Positions 4,172 through 55,254 of a stretch of DNA of 64,000 nt are shown piece by piece (position 1 is the first letter of the stretch; each line of letters starts with the position of its first letter). The notes below the pieces were generated by a model. That model had not been told where the DNA came from. It did not search any database and worked only from the letters and a program-made list of their open reading frames with translations. The translations under genes were made by a program, and so were the position numbers. Source of the DNA: Candidatus Aquidulcis sp. (GTDB lineage: Bacteria > Chloroflexota > Anaerolineae > Anaerolineales > UBA4823); contig DYIZ01000009.1 in the NCBI GenBank assembly GCA_020723385.1, forward strand, positions 3,676 through 67,675, written 5' to 3'.

Positions 4172-6718
4172 ATGAAGAAAACCAATCCCCTTTTTCTTGT
4201 TTTTAGCCTGCTGATGATCCTCAGCATGGTCCTGACTGCCTGCGGTAATGCAACTGAGACAGTAGTGACTGCACCCACTGATACAAGTGCGCCGCCGACA
4301 AAACCGCCTGCCTCCGAACCGACCAAGACACCCCTCCCCGAGGGCGTAATCGCGGTTGAAGAGGGCGCCAGCATCGTCTTCTCCGGCTGGGGCGACGAAA
4401 CCGAGCAGCAGATCTATCGCGACTCGATTGCGCGCTTCAACGAAGTTTACCCGAACGTTACCGTAGATTTTCAGCCTATCCCGGCAGACTTCCAGACCAA
4501 AATGAAAGCAGCCATGGCTGGCGGCACCGCCGCGGATGTTTTCTACGTAGACGACCAACTGATGACAGCTTTTGGCCCCACCGGCCAGCTCCTGCCGTTG
4601 GATGAGTACATGAAAGAGGCCGGCGTCAATCGCTCTGATTTCATCACTGCCTTGCTGTCTATCTTCACCCTCAACAATGTGACCTACGCGCTGCCCAAGG
4701 ACTGGGGCACGCTGGGTTTGGTGTACCTGCCCGAGGCCTTCGCCGAGGCCGGTATCCCCGAGCCAACCGCGGACTGGACGTGGGATGATCTGAAAACAGC
4801 GGCTGAGAAAATCAAGGCTACCGGAAAGTATGGCGGCTTCTGCCAGAACGCTGACTGGGCGCGCTTTGCCCCGTGGGCTTTCGGAAATGGCGGCGCTTAT
4901 GCTAACGCTGATTTCACTGCACCCATGATGAATACACCCGAAGTCAAGGGTGCGGCACTGTACCTCACCGATATGTACAAGCAGGGCTTGATCGTAACCG
5001 CCTCGGATGTAGGCGCAGGCTGGTGCGGCGAAGCCATCGGCAAGAAACTCGTGGGCATGACCTATGAAGGCGGCTGGATGGTCAACTTCATGCGCACAAG
5101 CTACGCAGATGTAACCTGGAAAGCTGTCTCGCTGCCCGCTGGCCCCAAAGGCAATGCCGATGTGATCTTCACCAATGGCATCGGCGTCAATGCGGCTACC
5201 AAGTACCCCAAGGCTGCCGCGGCCCTGGCGTTATTCCTCACTGGTAAAGACAACCAGGCTGAGATCGTCAAGACCGGCTTCGCTTACAGCACTCACCCCG
5301 ATCAGCTCGATATGGTTGTGGATCCCAATGACAAAGCTATCGCCCAGGGTGGGATGTTCGAGCTGACCCGTGTGGCCTATTGGGGTCCCAATACCGGTAA
5401 AGTCAACGACGCGGTTGGCAAAGCCCTCGAGCGTGTTTACCTCGGCGACCAGACCGTGGATGAGGCTTTCGCCCAGGCTGAGCAAGAAGCGTCCGAATTC
5501 CTCACCGGCGGCGGCGCTTCGGTCGGCACTGGCCTGACCGGGTTAGCCGTTTTGGAGGTCGAGGAAGGCGCCAGCATTGTCTTCTCCGGCTGGGGCGACG
5601 AGACCGAGCAGCAAATCTATCGTGACTCGATTACGCGTTTCAACGCGATTTACCCCAACGTCAAGGTGGATTTCCAACCGATCCCGGCAGACTTCCAGAC
5701 CAAGATGAAAGCAGCCATGGCTGGCGGCACCGCCGCGGATGTCTTCTACGTAGACGATCAACTGATGACGGCCTTCGGCTCCACCGGCCAACTGATGCCG
5801 CTGGACTCCTACATGGCCGCCGCGGGCACCGGGCGTGGCGATTTCATCCCCGCTTTGATGTCCATCTTCACCCTGGATGGCAAAACTTACGCGCTGCCCA
5901 AGGACTGGGGCACGCTGGGTTTGGTGTACCTGCCCGAGGCTTTCACCGAGGCGGGCATCCCCGAGCCAACCGCGGACTGGACATGGGATGATCTGAAAAC
6001 CGCAGCCGAGGCGATCCAGGCCACCGGCAAGTATAGCGGCTTCTGCCAGAATGCTGATTGGGCGCGCTTCGCCCCGTGGGCTTTCGGCAACGGCGGGGCG
6101 TATGTCAGCCCCGACTTCAAGACCGCTACGGTTGATACCCCTGAGATCAAAGCGGCTGCCACCTTCGTCGCCGACATGAAGAATAGCGGCGCTATCGTGA
6201 CCGCCTCGGACGTTGGTGCAGGCTGGTGCGGCGAGGCCATCGGCAAGAAACTCGTGGGTATGACCTACGAAGGCGGCTGGATGGTCAACTTCATGCGCAC
6301 GAGCTACGCGGATGTGGCGTGGAAAGCTGTCTCACTGCCCGCTGGCCCTCAAGGCAATGCCGACGTGATCTTCACCAATGGCATCGGCGTCAATGCGGCT
6401 ACCAAGTACCCCAAGGCTGCTGCAGCCCTGGCGATCTTCTTGACCAGCCGCGAGAATCAAGCCGAGATCGTCAAAACCGGCTTCGCTTACAGCACTCACC
6501 CGGATCAGGTGGATCTCGTTGTTGATGCCAACGACAAAGCCATCGCCCAGGGCGGCCTGTTCGACCTGACCCGCGTTGCTTACTGGGGACCCAACACCGG
6601 CAAGATCAACGACGCAGTCGGCAAGGCCCTGGAGCGCATCTACCTCGGCGATCAGACCGTGGATGAGGCTTTCGCCCAGGCGCAGCAAGAAATCCAGGAT
6701 ATCCTCGACGGAAAATAA
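4172..6718 (+). CDS. ABC transporter (CUT1-type sugar) solute-binding lipoprotein with two tandem full-length binding domains
   Basis: Lipobox LTAC and RBS AAGGAG upstream. Residues from VEEGASIVFSGWGDETEQQIYRDSI (nt 4355) recur from nt 5558, a period of 1203 nt (401 aa), with most positions identical. Confidence 0.9.
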   Translation: MKKTNPLFLVFSLLMILSMVLTACGNATETVVTAPTDTSAPPTKPPASEPTKTPLPEGVIAVEEGASIVFSGWGDETEQQIYRDSIARFNEVYPNVTVDFQPIPADFQTKMKAAMAGGTAADVFYVDDQLMTAFGPTGQLLPLDEYMKEAGVNRSDFITALLSIFTLNNVTYALPKDWGTLGLVYLPEAFAEAGIPEPTADWTWDDLKTAAEKIKATGKYGGFCQNADWARFAPWAFGNGGAYANADFTAPMMNTPEVKGAALYLTDMYKQGLIVTASDVGAGWCGEAIGKKLVGMTYEGGWMVNFMRTSYADVTWKAVSLPAGPKGNADVIFTNGIGVNAATKYPKAAAALALFLTGKDNQAEIVKTGFAYSTHPDQLDMVVDPNDKAIAQGGMFELTRVAYWGPNTGKVNDAVGKALERVYLGDQTVDEAFAQAEQEASEFLTGGGASVGTGLTGLAVLEVEEGASIVFSGWGDETEQQIYRDSITRFNAIYPNVKVDFQPIPADFQTKMKAAMAGGTAADVFYVDDQLMTAFGSTGQLMPLDSYMAAAGTGRGDFIPALMSIFTLDGKTYALPKDWGTLGLVYLPEAFTEAGIPEPTADWTWDDLKTAAEAIQATGKYSGFCQNADWARFAPWAFGNGGAYVSPDFKTATVDTPEIKAAATFVADMKNSGAIVTASDVGAGWCGEAIGKKLVGMTYEGGWMVNFMRTSYADVAWKAVSLPAGPQGNADVIFTNGIGVNAATKYPKAAAALAIFLTSRENQAEIVKTGFAYSTHPDQVDLVVDANDKAIAQGGLFDLTRVAYWGPNTGKINDAVGKALERIYLGDQTVDEAFAQAQQEIQDILDGK

Positions 6719-15283: not shown

Positions 15284-16486
15284 TTACGCACTCTCCAATA
15301 TCTTCAGGATTTCATCGGCCCGGTAAACGCGGTTACGCCGGCCGCCGGTGATCTCGCGCAGCAAACCTGCCTGAACCAACTGATCAATCAGGCGCTGAGC
15401 TCCGACAAAGTTGGTTTCTAATGCGGTTTCTACCAGGCGCGTGGTGATCACCGGCTGGGCAAAGAGCAGGTCAACCACCCGTAACAGCCTGGCTGGGGCG
15501 CGCCGGGCCTGGATTTGTGCCTGGTATTGGACTCGCAGCGCTTGCAAACGGTCAATCCGGTCCACTGCATCCTGAGATTGCTGCTTCACCCCTTCCAGGA
15601 AATAGAGCAGCCAGTCTTCCCAGGCCGCCCGCCGGCTGACTGCCAGGAGCAGATCATAATAGTCGCGGCGGTTGCTCTCGAAATAGGCGCTCAGGTAAAG
15701 CAGCGGCTGCGGCAGGAGCTGCCAGGCTGAGAGGAGCAGCGCTATCAGCAGGCGGCCCACTCGCCCGTTGCCATCCAGGAAGGGGTGAATGGCCTCGAAT
15801 TGGTAATGGATCAATCCCAGGCGCAGCAGCGGCGGCAGATCAGAGGGCGCGTGGATGAAATTCTCCAAAGCGCTGAGCGCCGCTAACATATCGTCTACGG
15901 GTGGGGGAACATAGGGCGCGGTTTCGAGCGTGCTGCCGGCAGGCCCGATCCAATTCTGGCTGCGGCGGAATTCTGAAGCGGCGTTCTCTGCCGCAGGAGT
16001 CCAGACATCGCCGCCCAGGTGTTCTTTACCTGCCACGCCCTCCATCAACCTGGCGTGCATTTCCCGGATCAGGCGCAGGCTGACAGGCAGGGTGTTGAGG
16101 CGCTCCAGGCCGTATTCCAGTGCGCGCACATAGTTGTGTACTTCGCGCACATCTGAACCTGTCTCAAGGAATGACAGCGGCGAATTTTTCGCTTCGGTGG
16201 CCTCATACGCCAGCAGGTCATCCAGCGAAGCACGCGTGCCTTCGATGCGTGAAGAAAGCACGGCTTCCCGGCGCGCCAGGGGCCGGATGAGCAGGTGCGG
16301 GTTGGCAAGCGTGCCCCCTAAACCTTTCAATTCGCCTAAAGCTCGATCAGCGTCGGAAAGCGCGGCGACCAGGGATGGAGAAAAGGTCAACGCCGGCGGC
16401 AGCGAAGCCGGCACAAACGCCCAATAGCCCTGCGGTAGGTGGATCACTTTCCCTGAAGTGGATGCCTGAAATTTGGATGGATCCAT
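15284..16486 (-). CDS. Fic family protein (AMPylase-type Fic/DOC domain)
   Basis: Fic motif HPFLDGNGRVGRLL, an N-terminal Fic-associated region and a C-terminal wHTH-like tail. Confidence 0.88.
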   Translation of the reverse strand: MDPSKFQASTSGKVIHLPQGYWAFVPASLPPALTFSPSLVAALSDADRALGELKGLGGTLANPHLLIRPLARREAVLSSRIEGTRASLDDLLAYEATEAKNSPLSFLETGSDVREVHNYVRALEYGLERLNTLPVSLRLIREMHARLMEGVAGKEHLGGDVWTPAAENAASEFRRSQNWIGPAGSTLETAPYVPPPVDDMLAALSALENFIHAPSDLPPLLRLGLIHYQFEAIHPFLDGNGRVGRLLIALLLSAWQLLPQPLLYLSAYFESNRRDYYDLLLAVSRRAAWEDWLLYFLEGVKQQSQDAVDRIDRLQALRVQYQAQIQARRAPARLLRVVDLLFAQPVITTRLVETALETNFVGAQRLIDQLVQAGLLREITGGRRNRVYRADEILKILESA

Positions 16487-16540: not shown

Positions 16541-16660
16541 TGTGCGTAATATGTAAATAAGAAACCTCCTAATTCCCTTATTCTTGTTCATGCCGAGGGT
16601 CAATATCCAATACCGCAATATGCTGCACCATTGGGTAAACGGCATACAGGTCAGAACTGT

Positions 16661-17123
16661 CCTCAGGCCGGCCTATAAGCCGCATTCTGTAGCGGACCCG
16701 GAGGCCCGCCGGTGTTCATCTCTCTGGGACGCAGGTCTCCCTGCGCCTCGTGCAGCCTACCCGGGACTCGAATGGTACGAGCAGCACCGTTGTCCCTGTT
16801 TGGCCTTGCTCCGGGCGGGGGTTGCCTGGCCGCGGACATTGCTGTCTGAATCCAGCTACGCTGGATCCGCGCCGGTGGTCTCTTACACCGCCTTTTCACC
16901 CTGACTGGCGGATGGCGTATAGCTTATGGCATATAGCAAATGGCTTTCGCCATAAGCTATAGGCCATTTGCTATTGGCCATCGGCCAGCGGTCTGTTTCT
17001 GTGGCCCGATCCAGTAAATTACTTCGCTCCGGGGTTTCCCCGGCGCCCTGCTCTGCGGAGTGCGGACTTTCCTCCAGTATCCCAGTGTCCCAGGATACCA
17101 GCGAACACCCGGCCGGCCTGAGG
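16661..17123 (-). ncRNA. rnpB: RNase P RNA, bacterial type A
   Basis: The minus strand carries GGAGGAAAGTCCGCACTCC, CACAGAAACAGACCGC, GGGTGAAAAGGCGGTGTAAGAGACCACC and ACAGAATGCGGCTTATAG. P1 pairs CCTCAGGCCGGCC (17123-17111) with GGCCGGCCTGAGG (16673-16661). Confidence 0.9.
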
Positions 17124-17304: not shown

Positions 17305-18156
17305 TCACGGCCACGGAATTTCTATCGGATCCGTATATCCGTGCTTCTCCACCGTGTAAAGCAGCCCGTGGGAGGGGCTGTCGCACCCGTCTTCGTCGGT
17401 GAAAGTATAGGTTAACTCGTCGGTCGCCACAACCATGAAGATCAGGTTACCATCCTTGCACACATAGGCTTCGATCATGTAACCGCGGTCATCATCTTCG
17501 GTCATATTCACTTTTTCCCAGGTCACGGTCACCTCGTCGCCATCGCGGGTGGCAGTCACCCAGCCGGGCGGGCCGTACAACGTCGAATGCGGCAGCACCA
17601 CCGGCGCAACCTTCACCGAAAAGATATCGCCTGTGACTTCCACCACCGAAGCGGCAATCCAGCACTGGTAGTTGATATTGTCCGGCTGGATCCACAGCCA
17701 TGTGCCCGAAGTATTGCGTCCCCACACCGTTCCCGTGTCGCCTTCGTACATGCCCCAGGCGTAGAGGTAGCCCTTCGCCGGGCCGTAGCGGCAGTTGGCC
17801 TGCATTAAGACTTTGATCCTCGGAAAGCTGTAAGTTGGTGATGGTGTGATAGTGGGAGTCGGCGTCACCGTGGGCGTCGGGGTCTCGGTGGGTGTGGGCG
17901 TCCCGGTGGGAGTCAGCGTCTCGGTTGGCGTCGCGCTGGGAGTGGCGGTCTCCGTCGGGGTGGGCGAAGCCGTGGGCGTGGGAGTCTCAGTGGGTGTGGG
18001 GGTTTCTGTGGCGGTCGGCGTGCCGGTGTCTGTGGGGATTAGCGTCGGCGCGGCGGTATCCTCCGGCAGCGACCCGGCCGCGCCGGCCAGATTGCAGGCC
18101 ATGAGCGATAGAATCAACGGTACGATCAGCCAATAGATTTTCGTTTTTCGAGACAT
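17305..18156 (-). CDS. Secreted lipoprotein with a Thr/Pro-rich linker and SH3b-like plus Ig/FN3-like C-terminal region
   Basis: Start trimmed to ATG 18156 ([21 protein letters not shown] lipobox, GGAGGA RBS). There is a long TPTxTxTP repeat linker. No specific family was recognised. Confidence 0.7.
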
Positions 18157-18324
18157 AGCCGCTATCCTCCGAGGAAATGAAACAACCATCGTAAAGGCAA
18201 AGCGTGAAGGTGTCAACCGACAAATTGGTTTGTAGTATGCGCTTTAGCGCATACTACAAACCTGTAATCTATTGGTCGTGATGGCGGGCGTAAAGGGGTC
18301 ATCCGCGCTATAATTCCACTAACC

Positions 18325-20172
18325 ATGAGCGACATTTTCGATGACCGGCTGCGCCAGCTCGCGGCGCTCTTCCCCGAAGCCTTCGCCGATGGGGTTCTCG
18401 ACCTCGACGGGCTGCGCGCCTCCCTGGGTTTGGCTGCCCCCTCCGGCCCCGAACGTTTTTCCTTCACCTGGGCGGGCAAACAAGCCAGCCTGCAACTGCT
18501 CCAATCGCCCTCACGCGCTACGCTTGTCCCTGCATCCGAAATCTCATCACCTTCGGATGGCGTTTTCATCGCCGGCGACAACCTCGAGGTGCTCCGCCTG
18601 CTCTACAAGCCCTACTTCGGGCGTGTTCGCCTGATCTACATTGATCCCCCGTATAACACCGGCTCCGATTTCGTTTACCGCGACAACTACGCTGACCCGC
18701 TGGATGCCTACCTGCGTCTCACCGGGCAAGCCGACGCGGCTGGCAACTGGCTCACCTCCAATCCCGAAACGGGCGGGCGTTTCCACTCGGCCTGGCTTTC
18801 GATGATGTATCCCCGGCTGTTCGTGGCCCGCCAACTGCTGCGCGACGACGGCGTGATCTGCGTCAGCATTGACGATCACGAGCTGCCCCACTTGCGCCTG
18901 TTGATGAACGAGATTTTCGGCGAGACGTGTTTTAAAAACACGATCATTGTGCGGCGCGGCGTCAAGAGTGTGCAGGCGCAATTCGAGAATGTGGACGCCC
19001 TGGCGGTTGGGCATGAGTACATCGTCGTTTACGCTAAAAGCCCGGAAGCGCGTTTCCGCCACCTGCGCCTGCCGCTCGACGAGCCGAAGCCGGGCGGCTG
19101 GAACAATCACTGGCGCGGCACCGAGCGCCCGACGATGCGCTACGAGCTGTTCGGCATCACCCCCGATCGCGGCCAGTGGCGCTGGAGCCACGCCCGCAGC
19201 CTGCGCGCCGTCGAAGCTTACCGCCGCCTGGCGGCTGACCTCGGCCCCAACCCCTCGCAGGCTGAAATTGATGAATGGTGGCGGGCGGAGGGCGCCCGGC
19301 TGGGGGGAGAAGTTGACCTGCTGCGCCTGTCGAAGACCGGCAAGCCGGAGCATTACGTGCCCCCCACCGAGACGCGGCTGGGCAGCGACCTGTGGGCGGA
19401 TCTCAGCCCGCGGGGCAATGCGGACCTGGAGGCTCTGCTGGGCCAAAAGGTGTTCGACAACCCCAAGCCGGTAGCGCTCATCCGCCGCCTGGTTGAATGG
19501 ATTACCGGCCCGCAGGGGGGCGACTTAGTGCTGGATTTCTTCGCCGGGTCGTGCGCCACAGCCCAGGCAGTGATGGAAGCCAACGCCGACGACGGCGGCG
19601 ACCGGCGCTGGATCATGGTGCAAATCCCTGAACCTTTGCGTTCCCCTGTCCTCCTCCCTCACCCCCAGCCCATCTCCCAGGGGGAAAGAGAAGAGGATGA
19701 GCTTCAAACCATCGCCGATATCGGATTAGCGCGGATACGCGCGGTCATCGAGCGGATGGAAAACCCGGCGGGCGTGCGCGTCTTTCGGCTGGCGGCCTCG
19801 CACTTTCGGGAGTGGCAGCCCCCCGAGGATGGCGACCCCGCCCGGTACGCGGAATCGCTCGCCAAAGCCGTTGACCCCCTTCTGCCCGGCTGGACTGATG
19901 CGGGGGTGCTCTACGAGGTTGCGCTGCGAGAGGGGTTGGGCCTCGATTTGCAAATCGAGACGATCCCGCTGCCCGGCCAGCCGGATTCCCCGCTCTATCG
20001 GATCGTTGACCGCCAGCAGGTTTTCTATCTTTCGCTGGCCGATGATTTGACGGGCGTCGCAGGCCTCGAAACGCTCATTCCCCCCGGAGCGCGCTTCATC
20101 TGCCGGGACGCGGCGCTTGACGATACGACCGCTGCCCGGTTGGCGCTCTACTGCCGGTTGAAGACGATTTGA
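18325..20172 (+). CDS. Site-specific DNA methyltransferase, N6-adenine, beta class (type III Mod-like)
   Basis: Motif IV IYIDPPYNTGSDFVYRDNY lies N-terminal to motif I LVLDFFAGSCATAQAV. Size and motif order match Mod-type enzymes. Confidence 0.85.
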   Translation: MSDIFDDRLRQLAALFPEAFADGVLDLDGLRASLGLAAPSGPERFSFTWAGKQASLQLLQSPSRATLVPASEISSPSDGVFIAGDNLEVLRLLYKPYFGRVRLIYIDPPYNTGSDFVYRDNYADPLDAYLRLTGQADAAGNWLTSNPETGGRFHSAWLSMMYPRLFVARQLLRDDGVICVSIDDHELPHLRLLMNEIFGETCFKNTIIVRRGVKSVQAQFENVDALAVGHEYIVVYAKSPEARFRHLRLPLDEPKPGGWNNHWRGTERPTMRYELFGITPDRGQWRWSHARSLRAVEAYRRLAADLGPNPSQAEIDEWWRAEGARLGGEVDLLRLSKTGKPEHYVPPTETRLGSDLWADLSPRGNADLEALLGQKVFDNPKPVALIRRLVEWITGPQGGDLVLDFFAGSCATAQAVMEANADDGGDRRWIMVQIPEPLRSPVLLPHPQPISQGEREEDELQTIADIGLARIRAVIERMENPAGVRVFRLAASHFREWQPPEDGDPARYAESLAKAVDPLLPGWTDAGVLYEVALREGLGLDLQIETIPLPGQPDSPLYRIVDRQQVFYLSLADDLTGVAGLETLIPPGARFICRDAALDDTTAARLALYCRLKTI

Positions 20173-20178
20173 ACGATT

Positions 20179-20643
20179 ATGCCCGCGCACAGCAAACCTC
20201 TCGCCGCCGGTGATACCTCAGCTTTCGAGTTCGTCCAGGAAATGCTGGCGGGCGACCCCACGTTTGGCATCAACTTCGACCGCATCCAATGGGACAGCCG
20301 CGATAATTGTTACGCCATCGTCGAGTTTCTGCTGTGCGACGAAGTGCAGTTCGAGCGCGGCGTCACGCCGCACACCAGCCATCCCAACCGCTATTTTCAT
20401 AAGAACGCGCAGAAATTCATCTCGCTCTGGCGATTGGCGCAGCGCATCGGGGCGAAGCTGTACCTGGTCAATTACGCTAAAGGGGGAACGCAATACGCCG
20501 ATCAGGTGATGGTGATGGTGGTTAAAACAGTTGATCCCCAGTCCGAAACGCCCGTGCAGACCGAGGATCACCCGCTCACCCGCCAGCAATTTTCACGCTG
20601 GTTCCGGCGGCTCAACCGGCGGGGAGATGGGTCGCCAGCGTAA
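20179..20643 (+). CDS. Hypothetical protein, 154 aa, probably co-transcribed with the methyltransferase
   Basis: It starts 6 nt after the MTase stop and is followed by a strong terminator. No family was recognised (…NCYAIVEFLLCDEVQFERG…HPNRYFHKNAQKFISLWRLAQ…LYLVNYAKGG). Confidence 0.65.
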   Translation: MPAHSKPLAAGDTSAFEFVQEMLAGDPTFGINFDRIQWDSRDNCYAIVEFLLCDEVQFERGVTPHTSHPNRYFHKNAQKFISLWRLAQRIGAKLYLVNYAKGGTQYADQVMVMVVKTVDPQSETPVQTEDHPLTRQQFSRWFRRLNRRGDGSPA

Positions 20644-20656
20644 ATTCCAAAGACTC

Positions 20657-20694
20657 AAAAGCCCCGAATGGCGGTCAGGCCATTCGGGGCTTTT
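20657..20694. terminator. Bidirectional intrinsic terminator between convergent genes
   Basis: AAAAGCCCCGAATGGC (20657-20672), loop GGTCAG, GCCATTCGGGGCTTTT (20679-20694), with a T-run on the + strand and an A-run on the other side. Confidence 0.8.
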
Positions 20695-20739
20695 GATTGT
20701 TTCGTTGTCAACCATCGCGGGAGATTGGATGACCCAGGG

Positions 20740-22300: not shown

Positions 22301-24274
22301 TCATTCGAACAACCTATCCCTTTCCATCGCCTTGAACATATCTCCCGCTGATTTGAAGCGGTCGTTTGGATCTTTCTCCAAGGCCTGCAAGATGGCGTCA
22401 GCTACCCCATTGGGGATAGACGCCGTTACGTCGCGCGGGTCTGCGGGGGGTTGCTGCAAGTGAGCGAGCATCATCGCCCCGGGGTTATCGGCCAGAAACG
22501 GCAGTTGCCCGGTGAGCATCTGGTACAGCATCACCCCCAGGGCGTAGATGTCGGCGCGCCCGTCCACCTCGCCTGCCGAGCGGATCTGCTCGGGGGCCAT
22601 GTAATTCAGCGTGCCCATCATCAGCCCGGTTTTGGTCGCGCCCGTGTCGCCGCCCAACATCTTGGCGATGCCGAAATCCGTCAAGACCGCTGACAGATGA
22701 CCGATAACCGGCGACAAACTGACTCCTGCCATCGGCCGCCCGTCATCTGTCAATCGCAGCAACACATTCGACGGTTTCACATCTCGGTGAACCAGCCCCT
22801 GGGCGTGGGCGTAATCCAGCGCTTCGCATAAATCCCGGATGACAGGCCGGGCTTGCTCATAAGAGATTGGGCCGGAGTCGGTCATGAACTGCCCCAAATC
22901 CTTCCCCGAGATGAATTCCATAACCATGTAATAGGTGCCGCTCACATCCCCAAAATCGAACACCTGCACAATGTTCGGATGGCGCAAACTGGCGACCGAT
23001 TGCGCCTCACGCTCGAAACGGGCGCGGAAATCGGCGTCGGCGGCCAGGCTGGCGGGCAGGATTTTGATCGCTACCCAGCGGTTCAGCCGCGTGTGGCGGC
23101 CTTTGTACACCTCCGCCATGCCGCCGCGTCCCAATCGTTCGAGCACTTCGTACGGGCCAAACTGTGTGCCGGTGAGCAGCCCGGTGATCTGCGACGGCGA
23201 AGGTTGCACCGCTTGCTGGGAGGCCACATAACTGGCCCAGGCTTTCGACGGGTACTGATAAGTTTGACCGTCATAGACCAGCATACATTTTTGCGACAGG
23301 TCACGCAGCAAGCCGCGCAGCGTGGTATCGCTGGCGGCGCGCCAGGCCAGCTCGTTGATCTGGCGCAGCGTAGATTGCTCCGCGCCGGTCAGGTTGCGCC
23401 AGTAATATTCGAAGTGCGCGGACAATTCCTGCATGGCGCGGGTTTCGATGTCGCGTGAGACATTGGAGCCCCCAGGGGTTTCTAAAACCCCTGGGGGCTG
23501 GAGTATCTCGAAGGCGTGGAAGCAGGCGACTTGCAGCCCGAGTGGGAAGCCGCCTGCGAATTGGAAAATGAAATCTTCGACCGGTTGGGAGAAAGCCACC
23601 CCGGCGGCTTGCGCCGGCCCGCAGATGATCTGCCGCGCCTCGGCTTCGGATAGCAGCCCCAGGAACAGAGGGGCAAAGATGTTGAAGAACGGGCTGGACA
23701 AGATTTCCTGCGATTTGCCGGAATAGGTCAGTTGGATGAGCGGCCGGGCCGAAGCGGTGATGAAGGCCAGTTGATAGCGCCCGGCAGCCGAGCGCAGCGC
23801 GTTGAAGAAGTTGACATCCAGGCCGGAGTTGCTGCTCAACCGCTCGAATTCGTCGAGCATCAGGATCACTTTCAGGCTGCGTTGGTTCAACCGGCGGATT
23901 GCCCGCTCGAAGGCCAGACGCCCCGGGGTCGCCACCGCCGCGTCGAGAATGGCATCCCCTTCCAGCCCGCGATCGTCGAGCGTCGCCGCAATCTCTCCTG
24001 CCAATGCGCCGAAAATCTCGTCGTGGCTGCCCTCGCCGAGAACTTCACAATCCAGGTAAACCAGCAAATAATCCGTTCCCAGCCCCAATCGCTCCAGCGT
24101 TGCGGGCCGCATTAGGTGAAACAGCAGCGAAGTCTTGCCGATCTTGCGCGGGCCAACAATCGAGACCGACTGGTTGCCTTTAAGAAAGGCCGCGATCTCG
24201 CCCAACTCGTGTTCACGGCCAAAGAATAACTCGGGCGAGCGGACGGGGCCGCGGGAGACGTAGGGGTTGGTCAT
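22301..24274 (-). CDS. STAND/AAA-like ATPase fused to a C-terminal Hanks-type Ser/Thr protein kinase
   Basis: N-terminus NPYVSRGPVRSPELFFGREHE, Walker A GPRKIGKTS, Walker B ILMLDEFE. C-terminal kinase motifs GRGGMAEVYKG, VAIK, HRDVKPSNVL, DFGIAK, MAPE. Confidence 0.88.
   Translation of the reverse strand: MTNPYVSRGPVRSPELFFGREHELGEIAAFLKGNQSVSIVGPRKIGKTSLLFHLMRPATLERLGLGTDYLLVYLDCEVLGEGSHDEIFGALAGEIAATLDDRGLEGDAILDAAVATPGRLAFERAIRRLNQRSLKVILMLDEFERLSSNSGLDVNFFNALRSAAGRYQLAFITASARPLIQLTYSGKSQEILSSPFFNIFAPLFLGLLSEAEARQIICGPAQAAGVAFSQPVEDFIFQFAGGFPLGLQVACFHAFEILQPPGVLETPGGSNVSRDIETRAMQELSAHFEYYWRNLTGAEQSTLRQINELAWRAASDTTLRGLLRDLSQKCMLVYDGQTYQYPSKAWASYVASQQAVQPSPSQITGLLTGTQFGPYEVLERLGRGGMAEVYKGRHTRLNRWVAIKILPASLAADADFRARFEREAQSVASLRHPNIVQVFDFGDVSGTYYMVMEFISGKDLGQFMTDSGPISYEQARPVIRDLCEALDYAHAQGLVHRDVKPSNVLLRLTDDGRPMAGVSLSPVIGHLSAVLTDFGIAKMLGGDTGATKTGLMMGTLNYMAPEQIRSAGEVDGRADIYALGVMLYQMLTGQLPFLADNPGAMMLAHLQQPPADPRDVTASIPNGVADAILQALEKDPNDRFKSAGDMFKAMERDRLFE
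23467..23499. repeat. Perfect 15-bp-stem palindrome inside the ATPase-kinase coding sequence (in-frame)
   Basis: AGCCCCCAGGGGTTT-CTA-AAACCCCTGGGGGCT. It encodes ...LQPPGVLETPGGSN... in the linker between the ATPase core and the helical region. Confidence 0.85.
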
Positions 24275-24371: not shown

Positions 24372-27300
24372 CTACAGCTTATTCTCGTCAATCACCCGGC
24401 TCAGCGACTTGTACTTCTCGACCCACAAGCCAAGCAAGCCCAATTTCCAGCGGTAGATTTCAGCGGCGGCGTCGGATTCGCGGCTTTCGATCAGGATATC
24501 GCGCAGCGACAGGTGGTGCAGGGCGTCGCCAATCGCCTGCCGCTCGACCGAGACGCCGCGCTCGGACAGGTAATCTACCAACGAGATGGCGGTGGCTTGC
24601 CCGGTGAGCGGCGCCATCCGGCTGAGGGCGGTCAGCACCAGCCGCTCTACGGAGGTGGATTCGGCCCACAGGTACATGAAATGCGCCTCGCCGGAAGCCA
24701 GGATTTCTTCGAGCGCATCGTTGACGTTGGCGACGGTGATGTAAGAATGCTGGGATTTGTTGTGCTGGTTGACCAGGCTGTGGCAGAGCAGTTGCAGGAA
24801 ATAGGGGTGGCCGGCAGTGACCCGCCAGATTTTATCCAGCGCCAGGTCGTCGTAACGCATGTTGAAGGGCGCGACCGGCTCCTGAATGAGCCGCATTGCC
24901 TCGGTTTTTTCGAGGAAACCGATGTGGCGGTACAGGCTTATATTGAACAGCACGTTCCAGTAATCGGCGGCCAACTCTTCCAGGCGGTGCGTACCGCAGA
25001 AGATGACGCTCAGGTTTTCGGTGTGCTGGATGAGATGGCGCAAGAAGCCGAAGATGGACGGCTCCAAATCGCCGCGGCGTACAGCCGATTCCAGCTCTTC
25101 GAATTCATCGAGCATGAGCAGCAAATGCCGCTCGCCGATGGCCTGGCGCACATTGGCCAGGAACACCCGCTCGAAATATGCAGCCGGGCTGTCGGCAAAA
25201 TCGCTCATTTCGGGCGGGGTGATTTCGAATTTCCGGTCTTCCAACGCGAAGGCAATTTCCGTCGCCAGGCTGAGAAAGAAGTTAGGCAGGCCAGGGTCGA
25301 GGCCGAGCGCCTGACCGTCAATGTACACGGCCTGGTAATTGTCACCCAGCCGGACGGGGAGCTGTTTGAGCAATGAGGTCTTGCCAGTGCGGCGCTGGCT
25401 GATGAGCACCAGGTTGTTGCGGTGCAGTGCAGCCAGGTTTTCCTTGACGAAGGCGATGGTGTCTTCCCGCCCAAAGAACAATGGGGAGCCGGTTTGCAGC
25501 GGCGTACCGACCACGTAGGGGTTGGGGATATGCTGGAACTCGCCCTCGGTGGGCAGCAGGCGGGTGATGTCGGCGAAGTTTTCAACCTGGTCGGGGCCGC
25601 GCGGGTCGGTATACAGGATGACAAAACGGGCGCGGAACTGGTCAACGCCCTTTTCGAGGCGCGGCCGCACCCGCAGGCGCACCTGTATTTCTTCGCCGGG
25701 AGCCACCCGCTCGACTTTGGCCTGGTGATCCACCACCGTGTAATCGGGGTCCGGGGCGATGGTGACGCGCAGGTTGAGCGCCGCGCCGCGCCCGTTATTC
25801 GTCAGGCAAAGCACCAGTGAGACAATATCATCCTGCCAGGTGTGGCGGGTGAGCAGTTGGCAGGCCAGTTGGGCACGGGTTTGCAGCTCGCCCATAGCCC
25901 CAGTGACCACCAGCAGCCAGCTTTCGGCGATACGCTGGACAAGCGGGCGGTCGGCGCTGCCCAGCTCGGTGCGGGCAAAGCGGTCAATGTGGCGCAGCCG
26001 CTCGACGGCGCCTGCCAGGTAAGCGAGCTTGTCTTGGGCGGTGTCCACCCGCTCGTAGGCGCCCAGGGCGCTGATGACGGGCTGGAATTGGGTGAGGGCG
26101 GCGCTGAGGTCTGAAAGGAATGGGGGGATAGGGGGCAGGGGATAGGGGGCAGGGGATTGGCTGGTCGTGGTTCTGTCCCCTGTTCCCTTATCCCCTATCC
26201 CCTTCTCCCCTGTAATTTGAGCAATCGAGTTGGCCTCCAGCGCCGAATGGCAGCGGCGGTAGAGCGAGAGCGCTTCGGCAGCGCCATTCCACTGACTGCT
26301 CTCGGGACTGACCAACTGGACGATGATATTGCGCAGCCCAACCGGCAATAATTCGGGGGTGGAGAAGCCGCTGAATAAATAGTAATAGCCTTCAGCCAGG
26401 GTTGCCAGCGATTGGCTGCGGCCTCCTTCCTGGTTGGTGAGCGCCCCCGGCAGGTTGGCAAGCACGCTGGCCGCGTCGGGATCTTTCCCGGCAGCCTGGG
26501 CTTGCACATGCAGGCGTTCCAGAACGCTGAATGGCTCCGTGATGAGCTGCTGCGCCAGGGTTTCGGCGCGCCCAATGGGTGAATCGCGGTACTCTTCCAG
26601 GCGATGCTCGGCTGCCTCGCGGCGTTTGACCTCGCTTTGGCGATCTTCGATCAGCCAGGCGACCTGGATGGATGTGCCCGCCTGGTCAGCCAGGTCGAGC
26701 AGGAGCGCCTGATCCTCGCGGGAGTAATCCTGCCCCGAGAGCCGCGGCCCCAGGGCGAGGACTCCTACCAGGGTGGAGGTAGCTTTTTCGGCCTGGAATC
26801 TTGGGGAGAGGGTCGTGCTTTCGATCTCCGGGGCGATCAATGGCACGAGCAATTTATAGACCGCGCCTTTGGGAAGCGAGACCACCTGCCCATTGTTCAG
26901 CCGGTTCATGGTGACGATGTCCAGCGGCAGCGCCGGATTCTCCTCGGGCAAGCCGTGCGCGTCGGCGATCTCGAATTTCTTGTCGGCTTGGAGCAGGTAG
27001 ACGGCTCCGTACTGGATGTGCAGCATCTCGGTGGTGCGCTCGACCAGGGTGTGGACCAACTCGCCTAAATCAATGATCGTGCGCACGCAGCGCGAGAATT
27101 CCATGAACATCTGCCGGAAATCCACTTTCTCCCGGTAGAAGCTGCGGTCAATGATGCTTTGCACGCGCCCGCGCATGGGCATGAACAAGGCCGCGATAAC
27201 CAGAGTGGTCACCGCAATGACCAGCGCGGATTGTGTCTGGGTGACCGAGCGCAGTAGCTGCTGAACGATAATGACCACGCCGAAATAGCCTGCCCCGAGC

Positions 27301-28322
27301 AGGCCGGTGACGACGCCGTAAACCAGGGCGCGGTTGATCAGCGTGTCAATATCCCACAGCCGGTAGTGCGTGATAGAGATGGTCAGCGCCAGCGGGACGA
27401 GCAGCAACAAAATCAGATAAATCGGCTGGCCGATAATGGTAAATAGAAGAGACGGCAGTCCGGGGGTCTTGAGCGGCGGCAGAACGAGGGGCGAGACATG
27501 AAAGTAGAAATATCCCAGGAACGCTCCTACCAAAGCGATCACCACCCATTTGGTTTGCTGGCGTTGGATGAGAGTATTGCAGCGATAACGCAAAATTTGA
27601 GCGAGGATGCCGCTGCCAAACCAGCCCAAAATGACAGCCAGCAGGCTGGCTATGCGGACGAAACCATAACCCCGTGCAAATACATCTGGATCACGTGAAA
27701 AAATGAATGCGAAAAAGCGGGCGGGAGTGGACATCTGGGATATGTCCGGCGAGTGACTGGGAATGATCGCCCACAGCGCCAGCCAGCCAACCCAAAACCA
27801 GGCCAGTAGACGCGTCCAGCGCGGGTAGAATTGTCCATCGGGGAAAAGATAAAACACCAGCAGGGTAGAGCCAACGCCAATCCCCTGGATGATCGTGATG
27901 ATCAAAGCGCGGCCGGGCGGTCCAATTTTGAGGACTTCCATATTCGGTGTAATGACGGTTGGGAAGGTAAGCAGCGCCAGGGAGAGCAGCACCGCCATCC
28001 AGTCGTCGGAGCGCCGCCAGAAGATGAGCGCCGCAGTGATGATGAAGAGCAGCAGGGTGAGCAGATCGAGAGCGGTTGTGTAAATGATGAATGCTTCGGG
28101 GCTGAATCCAAGCTGTTCGAGCCACATTCTTTCGATCTGTGGGATGATCGCGGCTTGCCCCATCCGGGCTGGAACCGAGATCGCCAGCATGAACAAGATG
28201 ATAGCTGCCAGCGCCATCCATACCGTGCGAATGAAATGGAGCGCTGCGCCGCGCAGCGGCGGGCGTTCTGTGGTAATCGGTTGGACGGCCTTGATGGGTG
28301 GGTGGGGGAGGGGATGGCTCAT
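24372..28322 (-). CDS. Polytopic membrane / GAF-like sensor protein with a C-terminal STAND/AAA-like ATPase module
   Basis: About 10 hydrophobic helices in res 30-390, then IDRSFYREKVDF. A GAF-like block follows (…YGAVYLLQADKKFEIADAHGLP…LVGVLALGPRLSGQDYSREDQALLLDLADQAG). The C-terminus reads NPYVVGTPLQTGSPLFFGRED, SQRRTGKTS, LLMLDEFEELE. Confidence 0.85.
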   Translation of the reverse strand: MSHPLPHPPIKAVQPITTERPPLRGAALHFIRTVWMALAAIILFMLAISVPARMGQAAIIPQIERMWLEQLGFSPEAFIIYTTALDLLTLLLFIITAALIFWRRSDDWMAVLLSLALLTFPTVITPNMEVLKIGPPGRALIITIIQGIGVGSTLLVFYLFPDGQFYPRWTRLLAWFWVGWLALWAIIPSHSPDISQMSTPARFFAFIFSRDPDVFARGYGFVRIASLLAVILGWFGSGILAQILRYRCNTLIQRQQTKWVVIALVGAFLGYFYFHVSPLVLPPLKTPGLPSLLFTIIGQPIYLILLLLVPLALTISITHYRLWDIDTLINRALVYGVVTGLLGAGYFGVVIIVQQLLRSVTQTQSALVIAVTTLVIAALFMPMRGRVQSIIDRSFYREKVDFRQMFMEFSRCVRTIIDLGELVHTLVERTTEMLHIQYGAVYLLQADKKFEIADAHGLPEENPALPLDIVTMNRLNNGQVVSLPKGAVYKLLVPLIAPEIESTTLSPRFQAEKATSTLVGVLALGPRLSGQDYSREDQALLLDLADQAGTSIQVAWLIEDRQSEVKRREAAEHRLEEYRDSPIGRAETLAQQLITEPFSVLERLHVQAQAAGKDPDAASVLANLPGALTNQEGGRSQSLATLAEGYYYLFSGFSTPELLPVGLRNIIVQLVSPESSQWNGAAEALSLYRRCHSALEANSIAQITGEKGIGDKGTGDRTTTSQSPAPYPLPPIPPFLSDLSAALTQFQPVISALGAYERVDTAQDKLAYLAGAVERLRHIDRFARTELGSADRPLVQRIAESWLLVVTGAMGELQTRAQLACQLLTRHTWQDDIVSLVLCLTNNGRGAALNLRVTIAPDPDYTVVDHQAKVERVAPGEEIQVRLRVRPRLEKGVDQFRARFVILYTDPRGPDQVENFADITRLLPTEGEFQHIPNPYVVGTPLQTGSPLFFGREDTIAFVKENLAALHRNNLVLISQRRTGKTSLLKQLPVRLGDNYQAVYIDGQALGLDPGLPNFFLSLATEIAFALEDRKFEITPPEMSDFADSPAAYFERVFLANVRQAIGERHLLLMLDEFEELESAVRRGDLEPSIFGFLRHLIQHTENLSVIFCGTHRLEELAADYWNVLFNISLYRHIGFLEKTEAMRLIQEPVAPFNMRYDDLALDKIWRVTAGHPYFLQLLCHSLVNQHNKSQHSYITVANVNDALEEILASGEAHFMYLWAESTSVERLVLTALSRMAPLTGQATAISLVDYLSERGVSVERQAIGDALHHLSLRDILIESRESDAAAEIYRWKLGLLGLWVEKYKSLSRVIDENKL
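26122..26212. repeat. Tandem-unit inverted repeat (GGGGATAGGGGGCAG units) inside the 1316-aa coding sequence, in-frame
   Basis: GGGGGGATAGGGGGCAGGGGATAGGGGGCAGGGGA (26122-26156) faces TCCCCTGTTCCCTTATCCCCTATCCCCTTCTCCCCTG (26176-26212). It encodes GEKGIGDKGTGDRTTTSQSPAPYPLPPIPP. Confidence 0.75.
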
Positions 28323-30069: not shown

Positions 30070-32673
30070 TTAACTGATGTCCGCTTTCTCGCTGGCCCAG
30101 AAACGCTGCAGGGCAGCCGCCAGGGGTTGGTGTTCGGGCAGACCAAGCTCAGGGTCTTGCTCGAAGAGGGTGTGAGCGGTCTTGCGGGCTTTCTCGATGA
30201 GGCGCACATCGGTCAGGCTGGCGAGTTTCAATTCGGAGAAGCCTGCCTGCCGGGTGCCGAGGAAGTCGCCGGGGCCGCGCTGCTCCAAATCACGTTCGGC
30301 CAGCACAAAGCCGTCATTCGTCTCGGCCATCGCCATCAGACGCTCGTTCTCGGCGGCGTCGGGGGTTTCCGGGATGAGGATGCAGAACGATTGCGCCTGG
30401 CCGCGCCCGACGCGCCCGCGGAACTGGTGAAGTTGCGCCAGCCCGAAGCGGTTAGCGCCCTCGATGAGCATGATCGTGGCGTTGGGCACGTCCACCCCCA
30501 CCTCGACCACCGAGGTGGAAACGAGAATATGCAGCTTGCCATCGCGGAAATCGGTCATCACCGCGTCTTTCTCGTCGGGTTTCATGCGCCCATGGAGCAG
30601 GCCAAGCCGCAGGGCTGGGAAGATTTCCTTTTGCAAGCGGGCGTGTTCTTCCACGGCGGCTTTGTCGGAATTTTCCGATTCTTCCACCAGCGGGTATATG
30701 ATAAATGCCTGGTGACCCCGTTCGATCTCGCTGCGGATTTTGGAATAAGCCCGTTCGCGCTCTCGGGGGAAGAAGACCGCCGTCTCGATGGGCTGCCTGC
30801 CAGGCGGCATCTCGTCCATCACCGAAAGATCGAGATCGCCGTAAACAGTGAGCGCCAGCGAGCGCGGGATAGGCGTGGCGGTCATCACCAGCAGGTGGGG
30901 ATTCTCGCCTTTCGAGCGCAGCAGCGCTCGCTGCTCGACGCCGAAGCGGTGCTGTTCGTCAATCACCGCCAGTTGCAGGTTGGCAAAGGTGACGGGGTCC
31001 TCGATGAGGGCGTGAGTCCCAATCACGAGCTGGATCCCGCCCTGTGCCAGGCCCTCTCGGATGTCGCGTTTCTCATTCTCAGGAGTCGCTCCCACCATCA
31101 GCCGAATCGCCTCAGGGGGAATAATCCCGTCCATCAATTTCAGGAAACTCCGGTAGTGCTGCTCGGCGAGGATGCCGGTGGGGGCCATGACGGCGGCTTG
31201 CGCGCCGTGCCGGACGATCATCGCCACAGCCAGCGCGGCGATCACGGTCTTGCCGGAGCCGACGTCGCCTTGCAGCAGGCGGTTCATCGGTCGGCCAGAG
31301 GCCAGGTCGGTGCGCGCATCGGACAGGGCGCGCTGCTGCGCCCCGGTGAGCGGGAAGGGCAGGCGGGCGATCTGCTCCGCCAGCCACTCATCGGGCGTGT
31401 CGAAGACATGCGCCGAGCGTTCCTGCCAGTGACGTTTTTGTCGCAGCACGCCAAGCTGCAACAAGAAGATTTCGTCGAACGCCAGTCGGTAGCGGGCGGA
31501 TTTGAGCAGGTCGTGCGAATCGGGAAAGTGCGCCTGCATGAGCGCCGTGGGCAAATCTATCACCTCGGCGGCGCGGCGCAGATCGGTGGTGAGGGGGTCC
31601 TGCACACGCGGCGCCCAGTGTTCCACAACGGCGTGCATGTGATTGCGCAGCCAGCGCTGGGTGATGTTGGCGGTGAGCGGGTAGATCGGCACGATACGGT
31701 TGGTGTGCAGGTTTTCCTGCTCCATCGGCTCGACTTCGGGGTTGGTCATCACCAACCGGCCCAGGTATTGCTCGATTTTGCCTGAGAGCACCACGTACAT
31801 GCCGGTGCGCACGCGTTTGGCGATGTAGGGATTCCACCAGGTGACGCGCAGCGCGCCAGAGCCGTCGGTGACGACCGCTTCGACCAACTCGCGCCGTCCC
31901 GAGTGGATGCGGCGGGTGACGACGCTCTCGGCCTTGCCGATGATGGTCACTTCGTCGCCGTAATCCAGGCGGTTGATGGGCTTGAGCTGGCTGTAATCGT
32001 CGTATCGGCGTGGGAAGAAATAGAGCATATCGCCGAGATTGTGCAAGCCGAGACGCGCCAGGGTTTGACCGTGCTTGGGGCCGACGCCGGGCAGTACGGT
32101 GACGGAGGCATCCAGCGCCGCAGGAGGGCCAGACGGTATCGGAGGGGATACGCGCTTTTGGGGGCGCATCTCAACCCTGGGGGCGGGGGGAGCGGGGGGC
32201 GAAGGCCGAGGGCCGAGGGCCGAAGGCCGAGGGCCGAGGGGCGGATCGCCGGAGGGGATGATATCCCCGCTGGGAGCAACTTCGGCGGGCTGAGATGGGG
32301 GAGTGGGCGCGCGGGGTTCTGTTTTCTGCCGCGGCTCGATTTTGGGGCGGGGAGGCCGGTCAACCGGCTTGGGTGATGGTTTTTCGCCGCCCGGCTGAGT
32401 CGGCAGGCTGGGGATGGGTTCGCCAGCTTCGCGTTGAATGCGTTTCCAAAGGCCCTCCAGCGCATCGGAGCGTCCCTGCGGGCTGAGATGGGGATAATCG
32501 TGGAGGCGAGATACCACTGCCTGGACGATGGCTTCGGGCAAATTATTGGCGCGGGCTTCAGCTTCCCACGGGCCGAGCATCTTGTCCAGCCCGCCGATGA
32601 TGGCGCGGTTTTCGTAGCCTTGTTCGACTTCGAGCTTGAGAAAGTTGTATAGTTTCTTGAGGGAAGGGTTCAT
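30070..32673 (-). CDS. recG: ATP-dependent DNA helicase RecG with an extended Pro-rich N-terminal region
   Basis: Motifs GDVGSGKT, DEQHRFG, TATPIPR, QLHQFRGRVGRG and a wedge/OB region. Start trimmed from 32841 to ATG 32673 (MNPSLKKLYNF…), which removes the overlap with the + gene at 32817. Confidence 0.88.
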   Translation of the reverse strand: MNPSLKKLYNFLKLEVEQGYENRAIIGGLDKMLGPWEAEARANNLPEAIVQAVVSRLHDYPHLSPQGRSDALEGLWKRIQREAGEPIPSLPTQPGGEKPSPKPVDRPPRPKIEPRQKTEPRAPTPPSQPAEVAPSGDIIPSGDPPLGPRPSALGPRPSPPAPPAPRVEMRPQKRVSPPIPSGPPAALDASVTVLPGVGPKHGQTLARLGLHNLGDMLYFFPRRYDDYSQLKPINRLDYGDEVTIIGKAESVVTRRIHSGRRELVEAVVTDGSGALRVTWWNPYIAKRVRTGMYVVLSGKIEQYLGRLVMTNPEVEPMEQENLHTNRIVPIYPLTANITQRWLRNHMHAVVEHWAPRVQDPLTTDLRRAAEVIDLPTALMQAHFPDSHDLLKSARYRLAFDEIFLLQLGVLRQKRHWQERSAHVFDTPDEWLAEQIARLPFPLTGAQQRALSDARTDLASGRPMNRLLQGDVGSGKTVIAALAVAMIVRHGAQAAVMAPTGILAEQHYRSFLKLMDGIIPPEAIRLMVGATPENEKRDIREGLAQGGIQLVIGTHALIEDPVTFANLQLAVIDEQHRFGVEQRALLRSKGENPHLLVMTATPIPRSLALTVYGDLDLSVMDEMPPGRQPIETAVFFPRERERAYSKIRSEIERGHQAFIIYPLVEESENSDKAAVEEHARLQKEIFPALRLGLLHGRMKPDEKDAVMTDFRDGKLHILVSTSVVEVGVDVPNATIMLIEGANRFGLAQLHQFRGRVGRGQAQSFCILIPETPDAAENERLMAMAETNDGFVLAERDLEQRGPGDFLGTRQAGFSELKLASLTDVRLIEKARKTAHTLFEQDPELGLPEHQPLAAALQRFWASEKADIS
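32200..32241. repeat. 21-bp tandem duplication (2 copies, 20/21 identical) inside recG
   Basis: CGAAGGCCGAGGGCCGAGGGC (32200-32220) and CGAAGGCCGAGGGCCGAGGGG (32221-32241). They encode GPRPSAL/GPRPSPP on the minus strand. Confidence 0.85.
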
Positions 32674-32816
32674 CAGAGGGTTTCGATCAATAGGATTTTC
32701 AACCGCCCATTGGCGTGTGATTTTTATCGCAGCCGTGATTATAACAGACGCTTGCCCGCTCTTGCCTCTCCATCCGTAATCGCATATACTATTCGAGCCC
32801 CGGAGACCTGCCAGCC

Positions 32817-33065
32817 ATGACACTTCCACGACGATTGACACTTTGGCTTCTCGCTGCTCTTATCTTATCGTTTCTGGCTGCAACCAGCTTTTTTTCCAAC
32901 GCCTTTGCTCAACAGCCCTCACCCACCCCTGGCCCTGACCCTACCTCGGTCGTCATCGGCGTCATGGATGCGCCGCGTCCTGGGCTGATCATGGTGGTCG
33001 CCTTCGTGCTGGTTGCGGGCTGGATCGCCTTTTGGACGATCAAGAACAGAATCAGGCGCGGGTGA
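32817..33065 (+). CDS. Small secreted/membrane-anchored hypothetical protein (82 aa)
   Basis: Signal-like LTLWLLAALILSFLAATSFFSNAFA, a Pro-rich spacer and a C-terminal TM LIMVVAFVLVAGWIAFW followed by basic residues. Confidence 0.5.
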   Translation: MTLPRRLTLWLLAALILSFLAATSFFSNAFAQQPSPTPGPDPTSVVIGVMDAPRPGLIMVVAFVLVAGWIAFWTIKNRIRRG

Positions 33066-55139: not shown

Positions 55140-55254
55140 CCGGTAGAGAACACCGGGGCCGGGGGTGAGGGCGGAAATGCTGTTTAGAAAGACCGATATT
55201 CCTCGGAATAATTGCCGGTTTGCCACGACTCATTGAGTGAAAAGGAGGGCCACA

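Follow-up and report, generated by a model that had tools for sequence, protein, structure and literature searches.

The stretch of DNA discussed here, below called the window, covers 64,000 nucleotides of contig DYIZ01000009.1 (assembly GCA_020723385.1) from Candidatus Aquidulcis sp., a member of the Chloroflexota. It harbors a two-gene operon composed of mod, which encodes a methyltransferase of the kind found in type III systems of restriction-modification (R-M), and a downstream gene that encodes a small protein, here referred to as X (Table 1). An earlier interpretation made from the letters alone (the sequence-only reading) described the pair as a type III Mod-like enzyme with a small protein instead of a restriction subunit, Res. 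As outlined below, the R-M context of this operon is ordinary, and X represents an accessory family that is undescribed and has no recognisable fold. Comparison with related loci indicates, in addition, that the window locus derives from a three-gene type III operon with the order mod-X-res but lacks its Res.

In Mod, the DPPY motif is located N-terminal to FFAGS, i.e., in the beta-class order that had been noted from the sequence, and the DPPY form of motif IV is diagnostic of N6-adenine methyltransferases. The protein matches the Pfam family PF01555 (E 1.9e-29) and, over residues 3-549, i.e., nearly its whole length, the PADLOC profile MTase_III (PDLC03634, E 1e-129). It is also 59% identical, over the full length and including the target-recognition region, to the Mod of a related locus (L060) that has a cognate Res, which supports its original assignment to type III; the 615-residue protein is an intact type III Mod and ordinary for its type. 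No simple-sequence repeats were found in mod, such that there is no sign of phase variation and a phase-variable gene could be ruled out.

The two open reading frames (ORFs) are found exactly where they had been placed, with a gap of 6 nt between them (TGA at 20170-20172, ATG at 20179). The strong terminator that had been proposed to close the pair is equally evident, with a predicted folding energy of its hairpin of -36.5 kcal/mol (z -5.5), while none of 200 shuffled sequences folded equally well. This hairpin is situated between convergent genes and is probably bidirectional. At the other end of the operon, the inverted repeat upstream of mod has no second copy in the window, and the corresponding regions of relatives contain no comparable palindrome. 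The G+C content at third codon positions is 0.78 for mod and 0.74 for X, compared to 0.68-0.76 for the neighbouring genes; because the codon-position composition is the same as that of the neighbours, the mod-X arrangement is not a recent insertion, and a recent horizontal acquisition of the pair, for which there is no compositional signal, was rejected.

Table 1. Features of the mod-X locus; coordinates are positions in the window
Feature	Coordinates	Strand	Basis or remark
Mod, beta-class N6-adenine methyltransferase, 615 aa	18325-20172	+	PF01555, PADLOC MTase_III
X, 154 aa, unannotated family accompanying N6-adenine R-M	20179-20643	+	Homologues, alignment, AlphaFold, contexts
Motif IV DPPY, Mod aa 107-110	18643-18654	+	Catalytic
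Motif I FFAGS, Mod aa 405-409	19537-19551	+	AdoMet-binding (S-adenosylmethionine)
Intrinsic terminator hairpin, 18-bp stem, T-rich tail	20655-20696	.	Closes the mod-X operon
Perfect 17-nt inverted repeat, 2-nt spacer	18227-18262	.	Between divergent genes, 63 nt upstream of the start codon of mod

The window contains no gene for a Res subunit, as had been stated in the sequence-only reading: a tblastn search with five Res proteins of related loci gave a best E-value of 0.48, and the sole superfamily 2 (SF2) helicase is the housekeeping protein RecG (30070-32841). A res pseudogene or remnant was sought by the same search and rejected. Because a complete type III system requires an adjacent Res, the locus does not belong to that class. 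In the closest relative with long context, L060, the X protein is 73% identical to that of the window and the gene order is Mod (630 residues), X (151 residues) and Res (924 residues), where the stop codon of X overlaps the start of res. The L060 Res is composed of ResIII and RE_endonuc domains (PADLOC REase_III, 7e-253). The mod-X-res order is also found in L061, L068 and L064, in four Bacteroidota genomes (L030, L031, L033 and L034) and on the Chryseobacterium plasmid pA2BH1, and the DNA similarity between L060 and the window stops inside X. Since Res adjoins X in these relatives, X is not present "instead of" Res; an adjacent Res in relatives was the very observation that the sequence-only reading had named as speaking against its own proposal. 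For this locus, its further suggestion of a remnant left by a larger defence system is correct. The possibility that X substitutes for Res, or supplies a nuclease domain that Res lacks, was rejected because Res proteins encoded together with X have PD..(D/E)xK motifs of their own.

When compared to type III systems such as EcoP15I and EcoP1I, which are composed of Mod and Res, the window Mod is similar in its motif order and in its matches to PF01555 and MTase_III, and its closest long-context relatives adjoin a Res with a ResIII helicase and an RE_endonuc domain. The window locus differs in having neither Res nor a remnant thereof, and this lineage differs in having an extra gene, X, between mod and res. 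A larger arrangement is seen in L048 (6068-15626), i.e., a five-gene type III array composed of an SNF2 helicase (1078 residues), DUF4391, X (219 residues), Mod (625 residues) and Res (1027 residues, RE_endonuc), which contains two extra components besides X.

The X family comprises 476 homologous clusters of proteins with about 150 residues, all of them unnamed, from many bacterial phyla and from archaea; sequence identities are mostly 55-79% among the matches listed, and a copy identical to that of the window is present in another sample. Taken together, the clusters and the identical copy demonstrate that X is a real gene and not a chance ORF, and it is a conserved partner. Searching 1.84 billion representative proteins with a profile yielded 296 relatives. 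The sequence-only reading could assign no motif to the small protein, and indeed there is no match in Pfam or NCBIfam at E<=1; nor was a description of the X family, or of a third gene in type III operons, found in the searchable literature. No X was found among 50,697 phage genomes, and just one of 2.9 million IMG/VR viral contigs contains it; this near-absence from viruses led to rejection of a phage origin or an anti-restriction role. In one Hodarchaeota metagenome-assembled genome (L035, 2036-2496), X is divided between two ORFs of 95 and 71 residues beside a 1334-residue Eco57I-like enzyme; the split gene is probably a pseudogene or a frameshift.

About 60 loci that contain X were gathered via four routes, i.e., genome contigs, exact-protein look-ups, plasmids and metagenomes. 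In these loci X is mostly located within a few nucleotides of an N6-adenine methyltransferase gene, often translationally coupled within the operon (gaps of 0-13 nt) and without a promoter region of its own. The partners include PF01555 Mod-type enzymes with or without Res, single or doubled D12/Dam-class methyltransferases together with AlwI-family type IIS endonucleases, giant Eco57I/MmeI-like type IIG or ISP enzymes, and lone D12 methyltransferases, such that four methyltransferase families are represented (PF01555, D12, Eco57I-like and EcoRI-type, the last as a fusion). Among the methyltransferases that adjoin X, 36 carry DPPY and one carries NPPY, and none has a C5 signature; the sole SPPY enzyme in these loci is a second methyltransferase, located 1.1 kb away. 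X associates only with adenine methyltransferases. No type I components were seen among the annotated neighbours of X, in a search that was not exhaustive. The X family thus accompanies N6-adenine systems that have asymmetric sites and cut at a distance, i.e., type III, AlwI-type IIS and Eco57I-like IIG/ISP systems, and it also persists beside lone methyltransferases or by itself. Some loci are more elaborate; in L006 (479-10998) and L062 (2-9205) a PLD(HKD)-SNF2 helicase of about 1240 residues and an Eco57I-like methyltransferase of about 1134 residues precede X, in arrays that resemble the BREX-related RM-like systems described in PMC12839542, that of L006 being followed by another methyltransferase and an NmeDI_C nuclease.

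The association is optional. Among 16 metagenomic loci with Mod homologues, X is found in one, and in at least six Mod is followed directly by Res; X is therefore dispensable for the core enzyme. In 13 loci X has no adjacent methyltransferase and is located beside housekeeping or other defence genes, and closely related solo copies display a ratio of nonsynonymous to synonymous substitution rates (dN/dS) of 0.13-0.15, i.e., they are under purifying selection, which indicates that X functions on its own; this function is presumably autonomous and non-toxic. In a neighbor-joining tree of X the partner types are interleaved and the clades track host taxonomy, and in the type III loci the divergence of X correlates moderately with that of Mod (Spearman 0.41), X being the more conserved of the two. 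These patterns point to a family that is a facultative, horizontally shuffled accessory. In the Lachnospiraceae loci L037, L043, L049 and L050, a D12-AlwI-X cassette is found downstream of a gene for an RlmD-like rRNA methyltransferase, and in a comparable position in the sister genomes L040 and L046 X alone is left, intact and with a Cys-rich C-terminal tail; a likeness of this tail to an Ada-type Zn domain was considered but not confirmed by Pfam.

The AlphaFold model of X (pLDDT 90.2, pTM 0.86) predicts the succession of helices (H) and strands (E) H13-23, E36-39, E44-52, H55-60, H77-90, E92-99, E109-118, E126-134 and H135-150. The protein is polarised, with an acidic N-terminal half (pI 5.1) and a basic C-terminal half that includes the last helix (pI 10.3). 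An alignment of 40 sequences contains 30 invariant columns; the conserved residues include D34, R35, E49, H68, P69, Y72, K79, N98, Y99, R135 and N146, and those kept in the remotest members are D12, S14, T28, D34, E49, H68, P69, Y72, K79, F80, W84, N98 and Y99. In this alignment D34 and E49 are invariant, but there is no ExK motif. A Foldseek search of the PDB and BFVD gave no significant match to the predicted fold; the best matches in the PDB, which are not significant, were YTH domains (YTHDF2, E 0.06, probability 0.3, TM 0.23) and Hjc (TM 0.46). A profile search of the PDB sequences with X returned nothing, no Pfam or NCBIfam nuclease family was found in X, and alignment of X with the nuclease domains of Res and AlwI proteins using hhalign gave probabilities of 0.1-0.2%. 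Derivation of X from a domain of a partner protein was considered and rejected, as a maximally sensitive hmmsearch gave not even weak matches.

Many proteins with about 300-330 residues are tandem duplications of the domain, here denoted X'-X; hhalign of X against their N-terminal halves gave 98.5% and 94%. The N-terminal copy, X', keeps the SKxL..DxS motif, D34, the E49 position (E/D) and the C-terminal FRxxNxxG helix, and it loses the SHPNRY loop and N98. An AlphaFold model of X'-X (pTM 0.82) has the same topology in both halves. Because the tandem form is thus a pseudo-dimer with two identical topologies, single-domain X probably acts as a homodimer, to judge from these models. The duplication also clarifies a match in PADLOC. 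X is recognized by the profile REase_II (PDLC03429, 7e-12), at profile positions 151-278 only of 324, and one type of tandem protein (members include P0235, 4e-81, and P0229) matches this profile end to end. The match of X is partial because the profile describes the tandem form, i.e., X is a single copy of about 150 residues, the model is a pseudo-dimer of about 320 residues, and X does not match it over the full length. Proteins of the PDLC03429 type are located between a double D12 methyltransferase and an AlwI-family nuclease, and because of this adjacent nuclease the label restriction endonuclease (REase) is not self-evident. The sources that name members of the PDLC03429 family all refer to them as hypothetical proteins, and an account of how the REase_II models were built was not found in the PADLOC publications. 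Beside one such cassette, with the order M-X'X-R(AlwI), L083 (5681-8920) contains a truncated additional gene for RE_AlwI and one for a type IV enzyme of the GmrSD type, which together with the cassette form a small defence island.

X is also found fused to other domains. It occurs at the C-terminus of an EcoRI-type adenine methyltransferase and, in two independent fusion clusters (P0190 and P0198), N-terminal to a LexA/CI-type S24 peptidase; one of the S24 fusions is located directly downstream of a giant ResIII-Eco57I protein. By analogy with LexA/CI-type proteins, the S24 fusions would place X where a DNA-binding domain typically sits. The C-terminal tails of some X proteins match a topoisomerase-type Zn ribbon and ExoX-like_C, in both cases at a borderline level.

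Tentatively, and with some reserve, we suggest that X is a dimeric, DNA-directed accessory that acts as a reader or regulator of the adenine-methylation state, rather than as the primary nuclease; for X we infer DNA binding, reading of the methylation state and a non-catalytic role. The window Mod is predicted to methylate adenine at N6 in an asymmetric site. X would act on DNA as a homodimer and would sense whether the adenines targeted by adenine methyltransferases are left methylated or are unmethylated or hemimethylated. The reading may involve a conserved aromatic and polar pocket formed by the SHPNRY loop, N98 and Y99, where the basic C-terminal helix would contact the DNA. In full systems X would tune restriction or expression, while in the window Mod and X would constitute a writer-plus-reader pair without restriction. 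Among the possibilities listed in the sequence-only reading, a methyltransferase-associated specificity or regulatory factor is the best general description of X. Conceptually, X appears to be closest to the reader modules that were predicted to accompany N6-adenine methyltransferases (PMC4738411) and to the standalone DUF3780 found in BREX-related systems (PMC12839542). Like RAMA, HARE-HTH, ASCH/PUA and DUF3780, which adjoin or are fused to several classes of N6-adenine methyltransferase, X is found with several such classes, and it also occurs as a standalone small alpha+beta protein in R-M-like loci. It differs from RAMA in that it is not seen fused to diverse nuclease domains, and membership of X in the RAMA, ASCH, YTH or DUF3780 families was rejected, as there is no Pfam match at E<=1 and no significant match to solved RAMA or YTH structures.

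A number of observations weigh against a reader role. No known reader fold (RAMA, ASCH, YTH or winged helix) is recognised in X, and the invariant residues E21, D34, E49, H68 and K79 have the appearance of an active site. In the tandem form D34 and E49 occur in both halves, and PADLOC labels the tandem family as a type II REase. The weak fold matches that recur are to PD-(D/E)xK nucleases, i.e., Hjc and bunyaviral cap-snatching endonucleases (E>=0.09). In the window and in L004, L007, L013, L045, L051, L056 and L065, a methyltransferase and X are found with no other nuclease nearby, which has the look of a minimal R-M pair. Furthermore, the partner systems are confined to types III, IIS and IIG/ISP and do not include type I, which hints that X is connected with the mode of cleavage and not with N6-methyladenine (m6A) as such.

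Several of these features also speak for X as a nuclease. It would then be either a compact homodimeric endonuclease, such that Mod and X form a minimal type II-like pair, or a nuclease of an auxiliary, back-up or second-strand kind in systems that possess one nuclease domain (type III, AlwI-type IIS and IIG/ISP). With D34 and E49 kept in each half of the tandem form, there would be two candidate active sites per pseudo-dimer, the fusion of X to an EcoRI-type methyltransferase would look like a type IIC enzyme, and all partner systems cut at a distance and use a single nuclease domain, which must pair for a double-strand break. We consider a nuclease role to be a serious rival, if somewhat less probable than the reader role. 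Against it, solo copies of X are common and under purifying selection, where a methylation-sensitive REase would be lethal, and X is too conserved (50-79% identity) for its specificity to co-vary with four methyltransferase families and their many target sites. Most of the R-M-linked loci contain a bona fide nuclease, including those with the PADLOC "REase", a label whose derivation could not be established, and the S24 fusions put X in a DNA-binding position. Because the solo copies are functional, X is conserved despite varied methyltransferases, a genuine nuclease is present in most loci and S24 fusions exist, a classical methylation-sensitive REase is unlikely. X lacks a canonical motif and a significant fold match, and hhalign against PD-(D/E)xK domains was negative. 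The idea of a compact type II-like R-M system with a novel small nuclease, another of the possibilities raised from the sequence, is therefore disfavoured on these grounds, although the candidate active-site residues and the PD-(D/E)xK matches speak for it; the Foldseek comparison that had been suggested as a check did return nuclease folds, but none at a significant level. The small subunits of heterodimeric type IIS enzymes (ss.BspD6I/BstNBI and the A subunits of BtsI and BsrDI) resemble X in being small proteins encoded beside an AlwI-family or other single-active-site IIS enzyme. However, ss.BspD6I shares homology with the catalytic domain found in its large subunit (PMC3017599), which X does not. 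X is moreover present alongside type III and IIG systems, as well as alone, and it has no evident counterpart of the PD-Xn-E-X12-QR motif found in the A subunits of BtsI and BsrDI. A BspD6I-type small subunit was rejected, as hhalign of X against the C-terminal domains of the coexisting AlwI proteins gave 0.2% and there was no PDB sequence match to 2P14-like chains.

X could also be envisaged as a sequence-specific transcriptional controller, analogous to the C proteins, that times or limits expression of the restriction gene via an operator. Like the C proteins, X is a small and optional protein that moves between unrelated R-M systems, and the nuclease gene often follows it directly (mod-X-res, M-X'X-R(AlwI), X-R-M); the S24 fusions recall the LexA and CI repressors, and the perfect 17-bp palindrome upstream of the window mod might be regarded as an operator. 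However, no shared operator-like k-mer or palindrome was found upstream of the X operons in 40 non-redundant loci (exact k-mers, i.e., a comparison of moderate power), despite the high conservation of the protein, and X contains no helix-turn-helix (HTH) or other known transcription-factor domain. In contrast to C proteins, X is confined to adenine methyltransferases, with no C5 or N4 system among its partners; it also far exceeds the C proteins in conservation and differs from them in its predicted fold (H-E-E-H-H-E-E-E-H). The frequent translational coupling, without a promoter region for X itself, is a further difficulty, and a controller would need to serve the bacterial and archaeal transcription machineries alike; such a role is improbable. 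A Vsr-like enzyme, i.e., one that repairs or processes a lesion or intermediate specific to adenine methylation, appears less probable still and would come as a considerable surprise. Vsr and X are both highly conserved proteins of about 150 residues that accompany methyltransferases acting on one type of base whatever the R-M type, X being sometimes fused and sometimes solo and functional, and the conserved Asp and His residues together with the aromatic ones could make a wedge-plus-catalysis site. Yet Vsr accompanies C5-cytosine methyltransferases and X adenine ones, X has neither a Vsr match in Pfam (PF03852) nor a fold match, and the absence of X from type I systems, which also make m6A, would not be explained. 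No m6A-specific lesion is known to need a dedicated enzyme.

A broader proposal, which is possible but which we regard with more doubt than confidence, is that X founds a new fold and family that serves as a universal plug-in for restriction systems that methylate adenine in asymmetric sites. X would then be one of two things, a methylation reader of a new kind, paired with orphan Mod enzymes such as that of the window in a minimal writer-reader system of prokaryotes, or a nuclease with a new fold that allows enzymes with one catalytic site to finish a double-strand cut, and type III systems would have an undescribed three-component form.

The remainder of the window contains several features outside this operon. 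The class A RNase P RNA is encoded on the reverse strand at 16660-17120 (RF00010, 232 bits, full-length model), between genes for a Fic protein and a Thr/Pro-rich protein and about 1.2 kb upstream of mod. The former (15284-16486, reverse strand) is a Fic/DOC family protein, possibly a toxin or AMPylase, in which the domains Fic_N, Fic and HTH_13 are recognized, and the latter (17305-18216, reverse strand) has 303 residues, a signal-peptide-like N-terminus, a long Thr/Pro-rich repeat (TPTxT...) and no Pfam match. Two adjacent genes for STAND-type NTPases are found at 22301-24274 and 24372-28322, both on the reverse strand; one of these proteins is composed of nSTAND2 fused to a Ser/Thr protein kinase, and the other, with 1316 residues, combines a GAF domain and nSTAND1 with numerous predicted transmembrane segments. 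The two may form a signalling or conflict module. Two unusually long proteins of 848 and 866 residues (4172-6718 and 55237-57837, both on the forward strand) each contain two stretches of extracellular solute-binding domain. The composition shifts markedly at about 58000-64000, where the G+C content is about 0.65 and the AT skew about -0.3, compared to a G+C content of about 0.50-0.55 just upstream.

For annotation, the window locus should not be called an active restriction system, and the PADLOC label "REase_II" on the X domain should be used with caution. More generally, type III, IIS and IIG/ISP enzymes are deemed complete with their known subunits, and a conserved, widely transferred third component would imply that some of their biology, be it control, self-protection or cleavage, has been missed. 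With its about 150 residues, a confident predicted structure and clear invariant residues, X lends itself to direct tests in E. coli. As a reader of adenine methylation, X would constitute a new reader domain and a dedicated effector for orphan Mod methyltransferases; as a nuclease, it would represent a new type of compact catalytic fold that might be useful in enzymology.

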